Below are positions 1 through 61,271 of a stretch of 64,000 nucleotides of DNA, piece by piece. Below the pieces are notes generated by a model. It was not told the DNA's origin and searched no databases. It saw only the letters and a program-made list of their open reading frames with translations. Numbering within the stretch: position 1 is the stretch's first letter; the number at the start of each line of letters is the position of its first letter. The stretch spans positions 1 to 64,000 of the forward strand of contig CBDHDF010000006.1 in assembly GCA_965261545.1 (NCBI GenBank), given 5' to 3'. The position numbers were made by a program, and so were the translations under genes. Source of the DNA: Bdellovibrionales bacterium. Lineage in GTDB: Bacteria > Bdellovibrionota > Bdellovibrionia > Bdellovibrionales > UBA1609.

Positions 1-127
1 AACTGGGCCACAGGAAGGCTTGGAGGCTCCGCAGAGCAAATTTCAGGAGAACATGAAGATGAACATGACTCTGCTTCTGAGCACACCGAAAAGGCTGGAG
101 ATTTTGGCTCTATACCTCCTGTACGCC

Positions 128-2678
128 CAATGGCATTCGTTTAGTGAGAGATCCCATTCGGTTAAGGATTTGAACCTCTAACTCCTCGGGGGTGGGCTAA
201 CCCCAAGTTTTTTTCTTTGATCCATGTGATTATCCGTTGGCCATAGCCCCCCTAACCTCTTTACTGGGTCTCCATACTCCGATGGGTTTTCTAGAAACTC
301 GGTCGTAATGCCTATTCGGACGTAGCCTTTGTCGGCAGGTCTTCATATTTGTAATGATGCAATTGAGGGTTTTACTAAGCACTACCTTTTGTTGAAGAAA
401 AAGACCTTCAATATTTCTTGCAATTGTCAGTAAATTGTTTTTAAAGTTTGTCTGCATGGTTTATTTTTTACTATGGGATTGAGATGTATTAAGACGGTCT
501 TCCGTGTAGTTGGAAAATAATCTTGTCAGAGTGATAAGTGTGAAGTGTGCAAACAATTCTTGTTTGACTCCCCTTTCACTTTGAGAATGAAACTCTTCAA
601 TGGTCATCAGTTCTTTGGATATTTTGTACAGTTCCTCTATACTCCAGCGTCCATGATAGAGATTGGCCAGATCATCAATGGAATATTTTTTTTGATTCAT
701 TAAGGTTGTTCCTAGAACAAAAGTAGTTTGTCCAATTTTGTGTTTGATCAAACGCAAATCGTAGGCTTTGAAGTCGTCTTGTGGCTTTTTTTTATGTAGT
801 TCTTTCAGAATTTGCTTGCTAGGAATGACTTGGATCACTGAGTCTTTTTGATCATTATTAATAAATTCATCAAAAACAGTGTTGGCATTTCTCCTTATCC
901 TAAACACCGCATGCAGACTTCGCACCTTATGCTCATGAAGCATTTCGTAGGAATAATAGCCACGATCATAAACCACAACATCGTTTTCAAACAATTTTTT
1001 GAAATGAGTTTGTGCAGCCTTTCTCTCATTGTTATGGGCAAAGAGATCAAAATCCACAGGAATCTTCGACTGTAGTTGGTACAGGCAACTGACAAGACCT
1101 TGAGGGTACCATGCTTTTTCCCATGGTTGCTGATACCCATTATCTACGAGTTGACGTGGTAAATTTATTTTCGATCCATCCACTGCGAAAACCTTATGGC
1201 CCTTCCATAAGGTACTAGAATTGGATATACCGTCTTGTTTAAGAATTTCATCATGCAAAACTTTAAATATATTTTCATCTACTTTAGCCCGTGCACTACA
1301 CATAGTGGATGCCCGAACTGGTTTAGGTTGAGGGAGTTCAATGTCTAATATGCGACACTGCTCCCAAAGTTCAATCAAAGTTGTATCATAACCTTGTTTT
1401 CCTTTAGAGAAAACAAGTCGGAAGATGAAAAGTATAATCAACAATGTATTCAAGACACGCTGACGCTTTTGCCAGGTTCGGTCGTACTCATCTGCAATGA
1501 TAACCACTGTCTTGATGATGTTTTGCCAAAGATGCACAAAAGAGTCCTCTAGCATAGGCTCAGCCAAGTTCTTATGTGGCTTGATGGTGGGTTTCCCGAC
1601 GGGTTTCTTGATAGCGCATTGGGGGCCATTCAATAAGATAGACTGATAATTCTTTGTCAGAGGTTGAACATAAACACCTTTTTGAGTTTTTCCCTTTACA
1701 TTTTTGTAGGCACGACTCCCATTTGTTTTGCCCAAATAAAGCCAGTTGGCAGCACGATAGCTCGTGGCATTAAATTTGGTAAGGTCGACAAAAGTCTCCA
1801 TGAGTACAGGTTTGAAAGCATGTTTTAACTCCCAGTCTGTGGGAAGTTGGCGAGTTGCCATAGATAAAGCCATCGAAGCAAGATGGCGAACCTTTACCCA
1901 GGGAAAGATCAAAAATCGACTATTGTTCACCACTAAATTCAAGTGCTTTTTGTAAGCTCGATTTTGCCAACCGATCCATTCATCACGGCAAGGCAAAGTG
2001 GATGTGCCAGCTTCAAATAAAAGACAACCCAATCTTCGCCCACAATTATCTAAGATGAAATAGCGTAAGTGGGGACCAAAGGGACGTCTGTAATTGAGAT
2101 AATGATGCCGATCGACAACTTCATTCCATTCCTTAATGGCCTCTTGATCAGTTACGATTTGCAAAGAAAGTGGGGTCAATGAGTCTAGTTTATCGTTGAT
2201 GAGAGGCTTTTCATCTGTTCGGTGTGTCCAAGTGATTTTTTTGGAGGGGACACTCCGCTTTGACATGTCTTTTTCTGGCAGGGATAGAATGTCAAGTTCC
2301 TCTAGCGTCTCAAGCATACGAAGGCACGATTGGATGCGATGATCACTTTGGGAGTTAGCCAACCAAGATGTTCACAAACTGTATAACCCAGTTCACGGCG
2401 ACTTAAAGAAGGAAATAGCGCCACCGTCTTTTGAATGTCGGCAATTTGCTTGCGCGTCAAGCGTCTTCCAAAAAAAGTTGTTGAAGGCAATGTCTCTATG
2501 CGTGGGTCCATTTGAGTCTCTCCCCTTTGGGAATGGTTCAAATATAATATGACACAACGATGGGGTGGACTCAAGTATTTTTTTTCGGAAAAAAAAAAGA
2601 TAAAAGCCCCCTTAACTCAGTATGTTAGAGGGAGTCAGAAAAATGTGGAAAAACCTTCTGCAAAAACGAATGCCATTG
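128..2678 (-). mobile_element. IS4-family insertion sequence 'IS4-A', copy 1 (DUF4338-transposase fusion)
   Basis: Terminal inverted repeats CAATGGCATTCGTTT (128-142) and AAACGAATGCCATTG (2664-2678); near-identical to 57942-61088; encodes DDE motifs; no 10-bp target duplication in its flanks. Confidence 0.93.
230..2511 (-). pseudogene. DUF4338 (DruA/Mom-like) + IS4 DDE transposase fusion, about 760 aa when repaired
   Basis: ATG 2511 after an AAAGGGGAGA RBS. 1-bp deletion near 2346 and CAA>TAA at 461-463 relative to copy 2. Motifs HHYL, NNSRFLIFPW, ETFVD, YRAANW, then AVDGS, VYDRGY, YHGRWSIEE. Confidence 0.88.
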
Positions 2679-56072: not shown

Positions 56073-57707
56073 TCAAAAAGCAGAGAGACCAGTAGAGCTA
56101 CGAATCAAGTTCATAACCTCCATGGGTTGAGTCGAAGAAAGGGACAATCGCCACTTGACCGCTCCATCTCCTAGCTGACCACGAAATCGAGACGGATTAC
56201 CAGCTTCAAGCTCTTGACCTGTCAATGTTTGAGCACTCCCAGCCGGCAACCTGATGTGCACCGCTTCTGCACCCGGTTGACCTAAATCATCAATTCCCGT
56301 GATTTTCACATTTATGGCACTTAAGCCAGGGTTGATCAGGCGCAATTGGCTCGAAAAAGAAGTATTACCTCCAGACTGAAAAGCATCAATGGACACACGC
56401 TGCCCCCGATGAGATTTGTAAAAGCTTTGTAGAGAAAAAACAGAGTCATCACTTTTCTTTCTATTACGAATATAGGCTAAAGCTTTGATCTTAAGTGTTG
56501 TTTCTAGTTCCAAACGCCAACTACCTTGACCCTGACTTCCCACACCTCCGGAGAGACCTTTACTAGAGTTTCCCTGCTCTAAATCCGTGGTATTAAAGTA
56601 AATAGTTCGACCGGCCGGCAAATTCAAAGAGGCAGGACCAAAACGTGTTCCTCGGTCGTCAATGGCATAAATCTTTACACTCCCAGAATGGCCTGAAAGA
56701 TTGATGATTCTTGCAACGCTTTGAACTCGAACTCCAGCCACCAAAGAACCTGAACTGGCCTGCGAAGCAAAAAAAGGAAGAGTATAAAGTGAAGTCCCTC
56801 CTCGTGTCATTTTTTTCGTTAAACCAAAGAAATTAGAGAGACCAGTAGAGCTACGAATCAAGTTCATAACCTCCATGGGTTGAGTCGAAGAAAGGGACAA
56901 TCGCCACTTGACCGCTCCATCTCCTAGCTGACCACGAAATCGAGACGGATTACCAGCTTCAAGCTCTTGACCTGTCAATGTTTGAGCACTCCCAGCCGGC
57001 AACCTGATGTGCACCGCTTCTGCACCCGGTTGACCTAAATCATCAATTCCCGTGATTTTCACATTTATGGCACTTAAGCCAGGGTTGATCAGGCGCAATT
57101 GGCTCGAAAAAGAAGTATTACCTCCAGACTGAAAAGCATCAATGGACACACGCTGCCCCCGATGAGATTTGTAAAAGCTTTGTAGAGAAAAAACAGAGTC
57201 ATCACTTTTCTTTCTATTACGAATATAGGCTAAAGCTTTGATCTTAAGTGTTGTTTCTAGTTCCAAACGCCAACTACCTTGACCCTGACTTCCCACACCT
57301 CCGGAGAGACCTTTACTAGAGTTTCCCTGCTCTAAATCCGTGGTATTAAAGTAAATAGTTCGACCGGCCGGCAAATTCAAAGAGGCAGGACCAAAACGTG
57401 TTCCTCGGTCGTCAATGGCATAAATCTTTACACTCCCAGAATGGCCTGAAAGATTGATGATTCTTGCAACGCTTTGAACTCGAACTCCAGCCACCAAAGA
57501 ACCTGAACTGGCCTGCGAAGCAAAAAAAGGGAGTGAAGTTTTCGTAGGTGTAGGTGGAGGTGGAGGTGGAGGTGGTTTACTAAAACTAGAACCTGTCGTA
57601 TCGTCAGAACTCTTGCTACAATTTTGATAAGTACCTACTAAAATACCTAGGATAAGAAAAGCAAGTAAGTTCCTCAAAATACTCTTTTTATTATACTTCA
57701 TATTCAT
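56073..57707 (-). CDS. Lipoprotein with poly-Pro linker and exact internal duplication
   Basis: YQNC signal, poly-Pro run, two identical 232-aa blocks. Confidence 0.88.
   Translation of the reverse strand: MNMKYNKKSILRNLLAFLILGILVGTYQNCSKSSDDTTGSSFSKPPPPPPPPTPTKTSLPFFASQASSGSLVAGVRVQSVARIINLSGHSGSVKIYAIDDRGTRFGPASLNLPAGRTIYFNTTDLEQGNSSKGLSGGVGSQGQGSWRLELETTLKIKALAYIRNRKKSDDSVFSLQSFYKSHRGQRVSIDAFQSGGNTSFSSQLRLINPGLSAINVKITGIDDLGQPGAEAVHIRLPAGSAQTLTGQELEAGNPSRFRGQLGDGAVKWRLSLSSTQPMEVMNLIRSSTGLSNFFGLTKKMTRGGTSLYTLPFFASQASSGSLVAGVRVQSVARIINLSGHSGSVKIYAIDDRGTRFGPASLNLPAGRTIYFNTTDLEQGNSSKGLSGGVGSQGQGSWRLELETTLKIKALAYIRNRKKSDDSVFSLQSFYKSHRGQRVSIDAFQSGGNTSFSSQLRLINPGLSAINVKITGIDDLGQPGAEAVHIRLPAGSAQTLTGQELEAGNPSRFRGQLGDGAVKWRLSLSSTQPMEVMNLIRSSTGLSAF
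56082..57530. repeat. 696-bp direct repeat (56082-56777 and 56835-57530)
   Basis: Offset 753 bp; no differences seen by eye; translations identical. Confidence 0.93.
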
Positions 57708-58043
57708 ATAATTTATATCTCCACACAAAACATTTCTTCATTCGTGTCACGAGCGGATCAAAAGATATCTCATCACAATACATATATCGTCACATAATAA
57801 TAAAAAGTTAAGCAAAAAATTGAAGATAATCCAATACGTACGAACTTAAGGTGAATTGCCTCCAAATTATTGACACCAAGAGATCTCGCTGCGCTTCTCA
57901 TCTTGACCAATCCTTAATAACAATTTACTAGGGGCTAATGGCAATGGCATTCGTTTAGTGAGAGATCCCATTCGGTTAAGGATTTGAACCTCTAACTCCT
58001 CGGGGGTGGGCTAACCCCAAGTTTTTTTCTTTGATCCATGTGA

Positions 58044-60919
58044 TTATCCGTTGGCCATAGCCCCCCTAACCTCTTTACTGGGTCTCCATACTCCGATGGG
58101 TTTTCTAGAAACTCGGTCGTAATGCCTATTCGGACGTAGCCTTTGTCGGCAGGTCTTCATATTTGTAATGATGCAATTGAGGGTTTTACTAAGCACTACC
58201 TTTTGTTGAAGAAAAAGACCTTCAATATTTCTTGCAATTGTCAGTAAATTGTTTTTAAAGTTTGTCTGCATGGTTTGTTTTTTACTATGGGATTGAGATG
58301 TATTAAGACGGTCTTCCGTGTAGTTGGAAAATAATCTTGTCAGAGTGATAAGTGTGAAGTGTGCAAACAATTCTTGTTTGACTCCCCTTTCACTTTGAGA
58401 ATGAAACTCTTCAATGGTCATCAGTTCTTTGGATATTTTGTACAGTTCCTCTATACTCCAGCGTCCATGATAGAGATTGGCCAGATCATCAATGGAATAT
58501 TTTTTTTGATCCATTAAGGTTGTTCCTAGAACAAAAGTAGTTTGTCCAATTTTATATTTGACCAAACGCAAAGCGTAGGCTTTGAAGTCGTCTTGTGGCT
58601 TTTTTTTATGTAGTTCTTTCAGAATTTGCTTGCTAGGAATGACTTGGATCACTGAGTCTTTTTGATCATTATTAATAAATTCATCAAAAACAGTGTTGGC
58701 ATTTCTCCTTATCCTAAACACCGCATGCAGACTTCGCACCTTATGCTCATGAAGCATTTCGTAGGAATAATAGCCACGATCATAAACCACAACATCGTTT
58801 TCAAACAATTTTTTGAAATGAGTTTGTGCAGCCTTTCTCTCATTGTTATGGGCAAAGAGATCAAAATCCACAGGAATCTTCGACTGTAGTTGGTACAGGC
58901 AACTGACAAGACCTTGAGGGTACCATGCTTTTTCCCATGGTTGCTGATACCCATTATCTACGAGTTGACGTGGTAAATTTATTTTCGATCCATCCACTGC
59001 GAAAACCTTATGGCCCTTCCATAAGGTACTAGAATGGATATACCGTCTTGTTTAAGAATTTCATCATGCAAAACTTTAAATATATTTTCATCTACTTTAG
59101 CCCGTGCACTACACATAGTGGATGCCCGAACTGGTTTAGGTTGAGGGAGTTCAATGTCTAATATGCGACACTGCTCCCAAAGTTCAATCAAAGTTGTATC
59201 ATAACCTTGTTTTCCTTTAGAGAAAACAAGTCGGAAGATGAAAAGTATAATCAACAATGTATTCAAGACACGTTGACGCTTTTGCCAGGTTCGGTCGTAC
59301 TCATCTGCAATGATAACCACTGTCTTGATGATGTTTTGCCAAAGATGCACAAAAGAGTCCTCTAGCATAGGCTCAGCCAAGTTCTTATGTGGCTTGATGG
59401 TGGGTTTCCCGACGGGTTTAGCGCATTGGGGGCCATTCAATAAGATAGACTGATAATTCTTTGTCAGAGGTTGAACATAAACACCTTTTTGAGTTTTTCC
59501 CTTTACATTTTTGTAGGCACGACTCCCATTTGTTTTGCCCAAATAAAGCCAGTTGGCAGCACGATAGCTCGTGGCATTAAATTTGGTAAGGTCGACAAAA
59601 GTCTCCATGAGTACAGGTTTGAAAGCATGTTTTAACTCCCAGTCTGTGGGAAGTTGGCGAGTTGCCATAGATAAAGCCATCGAAGCAAGATGGCGAACCT
59701 TTACCCAGGGAAAGATCAAAAATCGACTATTGTTCACCACTAAATTCAAGTGCTTTTTGTAAGCTCGATTTTGCCAACCGATCCATTCATCACGGCAAGG
59801 CAAAGTGGATGTGCCAGCTTCAAATAAAAGACAACCCAATCTTCGCCCACAATTATCTAGGATGAAATAGCGCAAATGGGGACCAAAGGGACGTCTGTAA
59901 TTGAGATAATGATGCCGATCGACAACTTCATTCCATTCCTTAATGGCCTCTTGATCAGTTACGATTTGCAAAGAAAGTGGGGTCAATGAGTCTAGTTTAT
60001 CGTTGATGAGAGGCTTCCTGAAATCCCTAAAAGTTGTAACTAGGTTTAATGTATTGCGTTAACTCTCTTTTCCTATGGAATTGGCTACTATCAACGGTTT
60101 GAGAGGTTTAATAGTATTAATATATTTAATATGACTCATAAAAATCTTCTTCGAAAGGTCCTTCGTTCCCATTGGATCGACAATATAAATTAGGCATAGT
60201 GGTAGCCTGCTTCTCTTCCTTGTCCCAAAAGCTTTTAACTTTATAGAGATAGGTTTTTCTTCAGTAACCCTCTCCAAAATTAGTTTCAGCTCCTATAGCC
60301 TGTTTCATGTGTTCTTGGGAAAGATATATCGCAGATTTTTCCTCTATTTGAAACAATTTTGAGAGATATTTCTTTCATTAAGATTATTATAAGAGTACAC
60401 AGTTTAAAATAGCAGTGCCAAGTTTCAAAACGAATCTCGGCAAGAACTACTGGTTTTTTCCTTATTTTTTTGCTCAAAAGTGTATGACATCGTTAATATT
60501 GTAACTATGCTTTTGAAGAGATGAAAATCTCTTAATCAAAGTGAAGGCCTTCTCAGACAATAATCAGGACTTAAGTCCTATACCTAGTTACAACTTTTAG
60601 GGATTTCAGGAGGCTTTTCATCTGTTCGGTGTGTCCAAGTGATTTTTTTGGAGGGGACACTCCGCTTTGACATGTCTTTTTCTGGCAGGGATAGAATGTC
60701 AAGTTCCTCTAGCGTCTCAAGCATACGAAGGCACGATTGGATGCGATGATCACCTTTGGGAGTTAGCCAACCAAGATGTTCACAAACTGTATAACCCAGT
60801 TCACGGCGACTTAAAGAAGGAAATAGCGCCACCGTCTTTTGAATGTCGGCAATTTGCTTGCGCGTCAAGCGTCTTCCAAAAAAAGTTGTTGAAGGCAATG
60901 TCTCTATGCGTGGGTCCAT
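58044..60919 (-). pseudogene. DUF4338-IS4 transposase fusion, disrupted
   Basis: 594-bp insertion at 60017-60610, 1-bp deletion near 59035, and 6-bp in-frame deletion near 59419 relative to copy 1. Confidence 0.9.
60017..60610. mobile_element. 594-bp non-autonomous element (MITE)
   Basis: 29-bp perfect TIR CCTGAAATCCCTAAAAGTTGTAACTAGGT; 6-bp TSD AGGCTT (60011-60016/60611-60616); the empty site is visible in IS copy 1. Confidence 0.95.
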
Positions 60920-61271
60920 TTGAGTCTCTCCCCTTTGGGAATGGTTCAAATATAATGTGACACAACGATGGGGTGGACTCAAGTATTTTTTTTCGGAAAA
61001 AGAAAAAAGATAAAAGCCCCCTTAACTCAGTATGTTAGAGGGAGTCAGAAAAATGTGGAAAAACCTTCTGCAAAAACGAATGCCATTGGGGCTAATGGGG
61101 CTGATTTGGCAAGAGGGTCCTTCCACATAAAATATTTATCGATGGTAAGAAAGCTGTTGTTGATGTGCACGCATATGTGAATGGAGCGTCTGTATCATTA
61201 TCATGACCTCCATAACCATCCACATATTTAAGAACTGGTACTTGAGAAGAGGAGCGAAAGTCCCAAGGGGT

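Follow-up and report, generated by a model that had tools for sequence, protein, structure and literature searches.

The window analysed here is a 64,000-bp stretch at the start of contig 6 (CBDHDF010000006.1) of the genome of a Bdellovibrionales bacterium (GCA_965261545.1; 4.32 Mb, 41.6 % GC). It carries two copies of a 2,554-bp insertion sequence (IS) of the IS4 family, the transposase of which is fused to an enzyme-like domain resembling the Mom protein of phage Mu (Table 1). The initial annotation had delimited an IS4 element by terminal inverted repeats at copy 1; these repeats are 15 bp long and perfect (CAATGGCATTCGTTT), and the assignment was borne out by the family searches described below. 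The gene in copy 1 is disrupted near 2345, where a 1-bp deletion splits it into an open reading frame (ORF) at 2302..2574 and another at 461..2362. Both window copies had been combined in the initial annotation to restore a single ORF of about 760 amino acids (aa). The predicted length was correct, as the intact gene product (P0001) has 760 aa, and the repair was unnecessary, since, of the 18 full-length gene copies located outside the window by a protein search, 17 have an intact ORF without a stop. A programmed frameshift was ruled out because the intact copies contain one single ORF.

Table 1. Coordinates of the two IS copies and their features in the window
Feature	Position	Strand	Details
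IS copy 1	128..2678	minus	2,551 bp; pseudogene copy of the 2,554-bp IS4-family element; without target-site duplication
Left (5') terminal inverted repeat	2664..2678	minus	CAATGGCATTCGTTT on element sense strand
Right (3') terminal inverted repeat	128..142	minus	
Second inner end motif, subterminal	153..167	minus	21 bp inward of right tip
Disrupted 760-codon transposase gene	230..2511	minus	ATG 2511-2509; intact-form stop 232-230
1-bp deletion	2344..2346	minus	Frameshift near codon 55, relative to copy 2 and intact copies
Premature TAA, codon 684	461..463	minus	CAA in other copies
N-terminal three-helix, HTH-like domain, residues 1-75	2288..2511	minus	From model secondary structure and conserved motif
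Mom-like GNAT domain (PF14236), residues 112-295	1628..2179	minus	R199 codon 1916-1918; S213 codon 1874-1876
IS4 transposase core, residues 321-760	233..1552	minus	
DDE codons	D445 1178-1180; D516 965-967; E626 635-637	minus	YREK motif: Y619, R622, E626, K633
IS copy 2	57942..61088	minus	3,147 bp including MITE; 10-bp target duplication CCATTAGCCC in element sense
MITE inside copy 2	60017..60609		593 bp; inverted repeats of ~30 bp (CCTGAAATCCCTAAAAGTTGTAAC...); 6-7-bp duplication (GAGGCTT)

P0001 was found to consist of three parts, namely an N-terminal helix-turn-helix-like (HTH-like) domain, a GNAT domain of family PF14236 (DruA/DUF4338) and a complete IS4 transposase with DDE and YREK motifs. 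The longer, 633-aa ORF of copy 1 matched PF01609 DDE_Tnp_1 (E 1.8e-21, 77 bits, cut-off 23) and the C-terminal part matched the NCBIfam IS4 model NF033592 (155.5 bits, cut-off 115). Conservation was determined from an alignment of 113 fused relatives, 51–63 % identical to P0001, in which D516, E626 and all four YREK residues (Y619, R622, E626 and K633) were invariant and D445 was conserved in at least 90 %. The DDE triad and YREK signature, the family model, and the terminal repeats with a 10-bp duplication together place the element in the IS4 family, as a member with an uncharacterised, widespread accessory enzyme-like module. Mean column conservation was 0.74 for both the HTH-like and the GNAT domain and 0.72–0.75 for the transposase; the module is thus under conservation equal to that of the transposase and is not decaying. 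A conserved internal start for a module-less transposase was rejected, as no conserved methionine was found near residues 300–330 in the consensus of these proteins.

The N-terminal region was modelled with AlphaFold2 (residues 1–310, 41 input sequences, predicted local distance difference test score 92.1). The model showed helices at residues 20–32, 38–49 and 57–72, followed by a linker and an alpha/beta domain at approximately 112–295. The N-terminal domain was named HTH-like from these three helices and two weak Cdc6_C matches, and its motif LSRxELAxTICExLxW..P.G..K...C was kept across transposase partners. A search of the ESM Atlas gave no usable match for residues 1–85, and nothing useful was obtained from PDB sequence searches with the module, HTH and full-length profiles.

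The alpha/beta domain has a predicted GNAT fold, and the resemblance to Mom that had been suggested in the initial annotation was supported by structural comparison, in which phage Mu Mom (8BV8) was the best match by two aligners. Foldseek placed 8bv8_B first against the PDB (E 5.7e-6), and in a BFVD search with the module model a phage Mom ranked second (E 2.2e-8). At the sequence level, 32 of the 41 members of the module alignment matched the Pfam Mom model (PF25680) at E<=1, the best at 7.9e-7. Mom was taken from the Mu record; an initial search in viral contigs gave near-identical Moms only, and the Mom profile was instead built from a collection of 854 relatives, of which 39 were aligned. 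Comparison of the module profile with this profile in hhalign gave E 1e-4 over 113 columns and paired H137/Y138 of the module with H58/Y59 of Mom, R199 with R111, S213 with S124, D243 with D149 and Y252 with Y159 (Mom numbering as in PMC13219725, which is that of the 231-aa record plus 10). Six of seven Mom active-site residues were therefore paired with module residues, and among the 113 fused proteins H137, R199, S213, D243 and Y252 were invariant and Y138 was present in at least 90 %. The motifs HHYL, NNSRFLIFPW..HLAS, ETFVD and YRAANWLYLGKT, which the initial annotation had listed, were all present.

According to the Mom study (PMC13219725), Mom transfers glycine from Gly-tRNA(Gly) to adenine N6 in double-stranded DNA; R111, S124 and R151 are described there as essential and the other active-site residues as important. 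The arginine R111 is reported to lie at the substrate cleft and to be conserved in Mom homologues and not in GNATs at large (PMC7261163). The module has in common with Mom the predicted GNAT fold, the six active-site counterparts and a YxAxN[FW] motif, but the two are only ~11–14 % identical and the module falls below the Pfam Mom cut-off. They also differ in that the module is fused or coupled to a transposase, whereas Mom is a late phage gene, and in that the element's protein has a separate N-terminal HTH-like domain in place of the HTH-like insertion of Mom. By these comparisons of models and profiles, the module resembles Mom in fold and active site, yet lies outside the Pfam Mom family. 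Several phage proteins of 400–700 aa annotated as homing endonuclease or endonuclease-like also matched the GNAT model in BFVD (E 1e-6 to 1e-4), so fusions of a Mom-like GNAT domain to other nucleases of mobile DNA may exist as well.

Membership of the DruA/DUF4338 family, as originally proposed, was confirmed by matches of the 633-aa ORF (E 8.4e-36, 124 bits) and of the N-terminal 310 residues (127 bits) to PF14236 (cut-off 27). The Pfam match ends at profile position 220 of 297. The PADLOC DruA1 model did not match P0001 at E<=0.01 and gave only weak matches (E 1e-7 and 2e-6) to stand-alone relatives. In the host genome, each of the 23 matches to PF14236 fell within an IS copy, with no druB-E gene context. 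The module therefore shares its Pfam family with DruA of type I Druantia and differs from it in the missing DruA1 match, the partial Pfam coverage and the absence of Druantia neighbours. A literature search returned no paper that connects DruA/DUF4338 with Mom or with transposons; DUF4338 has been described as a GNAT domain fused to DndF (PMC10853773).

To place the window copies in their genomic context, the element was searched against the host genome at the DNA level, which gave 41 matches. Both ends were present in 18 of these, mostly at a length of 2,554 bp, with a 10-bp target duplication at 12 and none at the other six, copy 1 among them. The full-length copies were 99–100 % identical to each other (n=18), and no match at E<=1e-20 was found in 40 relatives (24 from the same family and 16 from the same order). 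Because of this high identity and the absence from relatives, the element looks like a recent acquisition that was followed by a burst. Overall, these data show that it is real and recently active. The 12 duplications lie between a C-run and a G-run and are GC-rich for a genome of this composition, with several short hairpins; similar G/C-rich targets were seen in relatives from other phyla and in a module-less IS.

The flanks of copy 1 were compared with those of other copies. Its outer flank (window 1-127, up to the contig start) agrees at every position, over at least 45 bp, with the flank of an intact copy on contig 7, and the motif CCCCGATGGGC in its other flank also occurs beside three further copies. 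Combined with the absent duplication, this pattern points to inter-copy recombination or an assembly join at the repeat.

The module-less relative, the nearest IS4-family element encountered in this analysis, is an IS of 1,427 bp on plasmids of Robbsia andropogonis (NZ_CP139168.1), with a transposase 40 % identical to residues 319–747. Its ends (CAATGGCATTCGGTTAAG) are the same as those of the element, and it is flanked by a 10-bp duplication in a G-rich site. The element shares with this sister IS and with the IS4 family, of which IS50/Tn5 and IS10 are the classic members, the DDE triad, YREK, NF033592, repeats starting CAATGGCATTCG, the 10-bp duplication and GC-rich targets. In contrast to them, it has ~320 extra N-terminal residues, is 1.1 kb longer and repeats the end motif in phase at its right end but not at its left. 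Because the sister IS uses the same ends, the module is accessory as judged from this sequence comparison. A role of the module in end recognition was rejected for the same reason, and also because the HTH motif is kept beside transposases with unrelated ends. A role as target selector was unsupported, as the module-less IS also duplicates 10 bp in a G-rich site, in this single case.

The ends of module-bearing elements were then compared. The left tip CAATGGCAT(TC) was kept in relatives L032, L033 (from the second base), L034, L035, L040, L054 and L092. In nine of the nine module-bearing IS4-type elements examined (the window element, L032-L035, L037, L040, L054 and L092), the inner motif recurred at the right end with no more than 2 mismatches in 10. 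The motif copies were 21–22 bp apart, or about two helical turns, and L092 had three of them. Left ends were without a second copy, and the Robbsia IS had the terminal copy alone at each end. A tRNA T-loop-like sequence, GGTTCAAATCC, was noted at window 166-176 (minus-strand sense), 45 nt from the right tip; a tRNA-like element at this end was rejected, as GGTTCAAATCC was not conserved in relatives and ARAGORN found no tRNA.

IS4 transposases work as dimers, which, together with the extra phased motif copy at the right end of module-bearing elements, would favour a module without enzyme activity that serves the transposase as a scaffold for dimerisation, synapsis or DNA binding. Mom is likewise described as a tight dimer, dependent on W48 (PMC13219725). 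We nevertheless consider a scaffold very improbable, since the sister IS uses the same ends without the module and the counterparts of H58, R111, S124, D149 and Y159 are invariant, and that of Y59 at least 90 % conserved, across 113 diverged proteins, which a scaffold would not need.

The distribution of the module was determined by protein searches. The 633-aa ORF matched 1,491 proteins at E<=1e-3 among 5,365 candidates; among the matches listed (120), all had both Pfam domains and most were 740–770 aa long. One source labels such a protein 'Druantia protein DruA/Transposase DDE domain', and the fused architecture is already visible in database annotations. Thus, of the interpretation in the initial annotation, the Mom/GNAT reading was supported, and the view that a fused catalytic passenger is atypical for a simple IS was not, given that the fusion is common. 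A search with the N-terminal 310 residues returned 1,661 shorter proteins, many of ~300 aa. No full-length fusion was found in PLSDB.

When one genome per species was scanned, 80 loci were returned, and the number of stored stretches having the motif was estimated at ~5,700. Seven loci were set aside as copies of L048 or L078, and the remaining 73 were examined. The intact fusions that the initial annotation had proposed to look for were present here as fused ORFs of 741–845 aa in 13 of the 73 loci, in addition to the 17 intact ORFs of the host genome; most other loci had a stand-alone ORF of ~285–330 aa. For 30 stand-alone loci, the large abutting ORF was chosen among 391 neighbour ORFs and scanned for family membership, and in 19 it was a transposase, of families IS66 (seven), DDE_Tnp_1_assoc (four), ISKra4 (four), IS1634 (two), IS701 (one) and other DDE_Tnp_1 (one). 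The ISKra4, IS1634, IS701 and IS66 partners scored above the NCBIfam curated cut-offs. In L065 (223-2735) the ORFs were a tandem of DruA-family members, the 451-aa neighbour itself matching PF14236 (E 1.5e-36). The remaining ten neighbours were ordinary genes or without family, including that of L048, which lies in a six-copy unit of 2,804 bp. Module and transposase made up the entire repeated unit of 2.35–2.85 kb, present in up to six identical copies per genome, and the two ORFs of two-gene elements mostly abutted or overlapped.

A maximum-likelihood tree was built from 40 modules, excluding L039 and L078 because of stops in the match regions. The 13 IS4-fused modules formed one group (support 94/89; in 96 % of bootstrap trees), whereas the IS66-partnered modules required at least three changes on well-supported branches. 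This fits a fusion that arose once, long ago, in the IS4 lineage, with repeated changes of partner outside it. Overall, sequence comparison shows the module accompanying at least five transposase families, either fused or tightly coupled, with partner switches.

The movement of the module among unrelated transposase families would be expected if it were cargo, that is, a Mom-type modifier acting genome- or carrier-wide for restriction protection or defence and aiding the IS or its host in horizontal transfer. The family name derives from a defence system, and Mom is reported to shield Mu DNA from restriction (PMC13219725). However, in the IS4 lineage the module stays fused across phyla and is conserved as much as the transposase, the two-gene elements have abutting or overlapping ORFs in a unit that holds these two genes only, and there are no DruB-E-type partners, with 23 of 23 genomic PF14236 matches in IS copies. 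Transposases are also typically scarce and cis-acting, and ill-suited to global modification. We therefore regard cargo as improbable.

Our preferred reading, which is tentative and to which we give somewhat less than an even chance, is that the Mom-like GNAT module of the IS4 transposase is active and modifies DNA held beside the transposase by acyl or aminoacyl transfer, acting locally to tune transposition. Either a charged tRNA, as used by Mom, or an acyl-CoA may serve as donor. The acceptor would probably be local (the element ends, donor or target DNA) and not the whole genome, since a covalent link or translational coupling ties the module to an enzyme that is scarce and acts in cis. 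The mark would then adjust transposition, for instance by preventing re-binding or re-excision up to its removal by replication. The HTH-like domain probably recognises a universal ligand shared by all hosts and partners (tRNA or generic DNA, for instance), and not element-specific ends, because its motif is kept beside transposases whose element ends are unrelated.

A number of observations weigh against this reading. The Pfam Mom model gave only 12.5 bits on P0001 (E 0.12, cut-off 27.1), placing it outside the Mom family, and the hhalign probability was only 57.8 against the Mom profile and 3.6 (E 0.012) against Mom alone. The essential R151 of Mom aligns to T245, with a conserved R/K of the family one residue later. 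The HTH-like insertion of Mom (residues ~175–209) is absent from the module, the model of which has short strands and no helical insertion at this point; only ~41 domain residues follow Y252, compared to 82 after the equivalent tyrosine in Mom. We know of no PF14236 protein for which the modified base, donor or acceptor has been established. The GNAT fold leaves the substrate undefined, and the local regulatory role is proposed from gene architecture only; a self-contained cargo gene would likewise be compatible with the frequent changes of partner. The insertion is reported to be essential for momylation, and the Mom authors state that Mom substrates are not predictable from structure (PMC13219725).

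The absence of this DNA-contacting insertion is also consistent with a non-DNA acceptor. The module would then (amino)acylate a protein, namely the transposase or a host factor; alternatively, it would sense charged tRNA or act on it, and so couple transposition to the translational or nutritional state. GNATs mostly act on proteins or small molecules, and FemX, L/F-transferase and TacT are described as using or modifying aminoacyl-tRNA (PMC13219725); an HTH-like domain that is kept whatever the partner ends would likewise fit a universal ligand such as tRNA. Against this, the closest fold is Mom and the Mom-specific arginine is kept (R199 = R111), which points to a Mom-like acceptor, and the other contexts of the family lie in DNA conflict, namely Druantia DruA and the DndF fusion (PMC10853773). 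We consider a non-DNA acceptor rather unlikely.

For the preferred reading of a locally written DNA mark, an analogy is offered by host Dam methylation, which controls IS10 and IS50 transposition. In both cases a base mark at the ends or promoter would gate the transposase and tie it to replication. The likeness extends to this analogy only; the Dam writer is a host enzyme, whereas here a putative writer with different chemistry is borne by the element. In its broadest form, the proposal would be that a Mom-type writer is encoded by the DDE transposons themselves, in at least five families, that it places an aminoacyl mark derived from charged tRNA at the transposition site and acts as a self-encoded epigenetic switch, and that these transposons form the reservoir of phage Mom and Druantia DruA. 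We view this extended form as doubtful.

Copy 2 was found by BLAST of the element against the window and is 99.2 % identical to it, interrupted at 60017-60609. Its end, initially placed at 61089, was corrected to 61088. It carries three lesions: 1 bp is missing near 59035, 6 bp are missing in frame near 59419, and a miniature inverted-repeat transposable element (MITE) has been inserted. The genome contains seven full-length copies of the MITE and ~30 shorter relatives that have the last 158 bp in common, and a second mobile family is therefore active in this genome. A composite transposon built from both window copies was ruled out, as copy 2 is flanked by a duplication of its own whereas copy 1 lacks one. 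At window 56073-57728 (minus strand) there is a 551-aa ORF in which a lipoprotein-like N-terminus containing a run of prolines precedes two near-identical halves of ~250 aa.

Simple insertion sequences are commonly assumed to encode nothing beyond the functions required to transpose. Here, selection maintains an enzyme-like module alongside the transposase, and to the same degree, in thousands of elements, and the module is common to unrelated transposase families; this implies an unrecognised step or control in transposition. If a Mom-type mark is indeed written, this would be the first transposase-borne DNA modifier. PF14236/DruA would then gain a testable biochemical activity, which would also inform type I Druantia, and tRNA-dependent DNA modification would reach beyond one phage enzyme.

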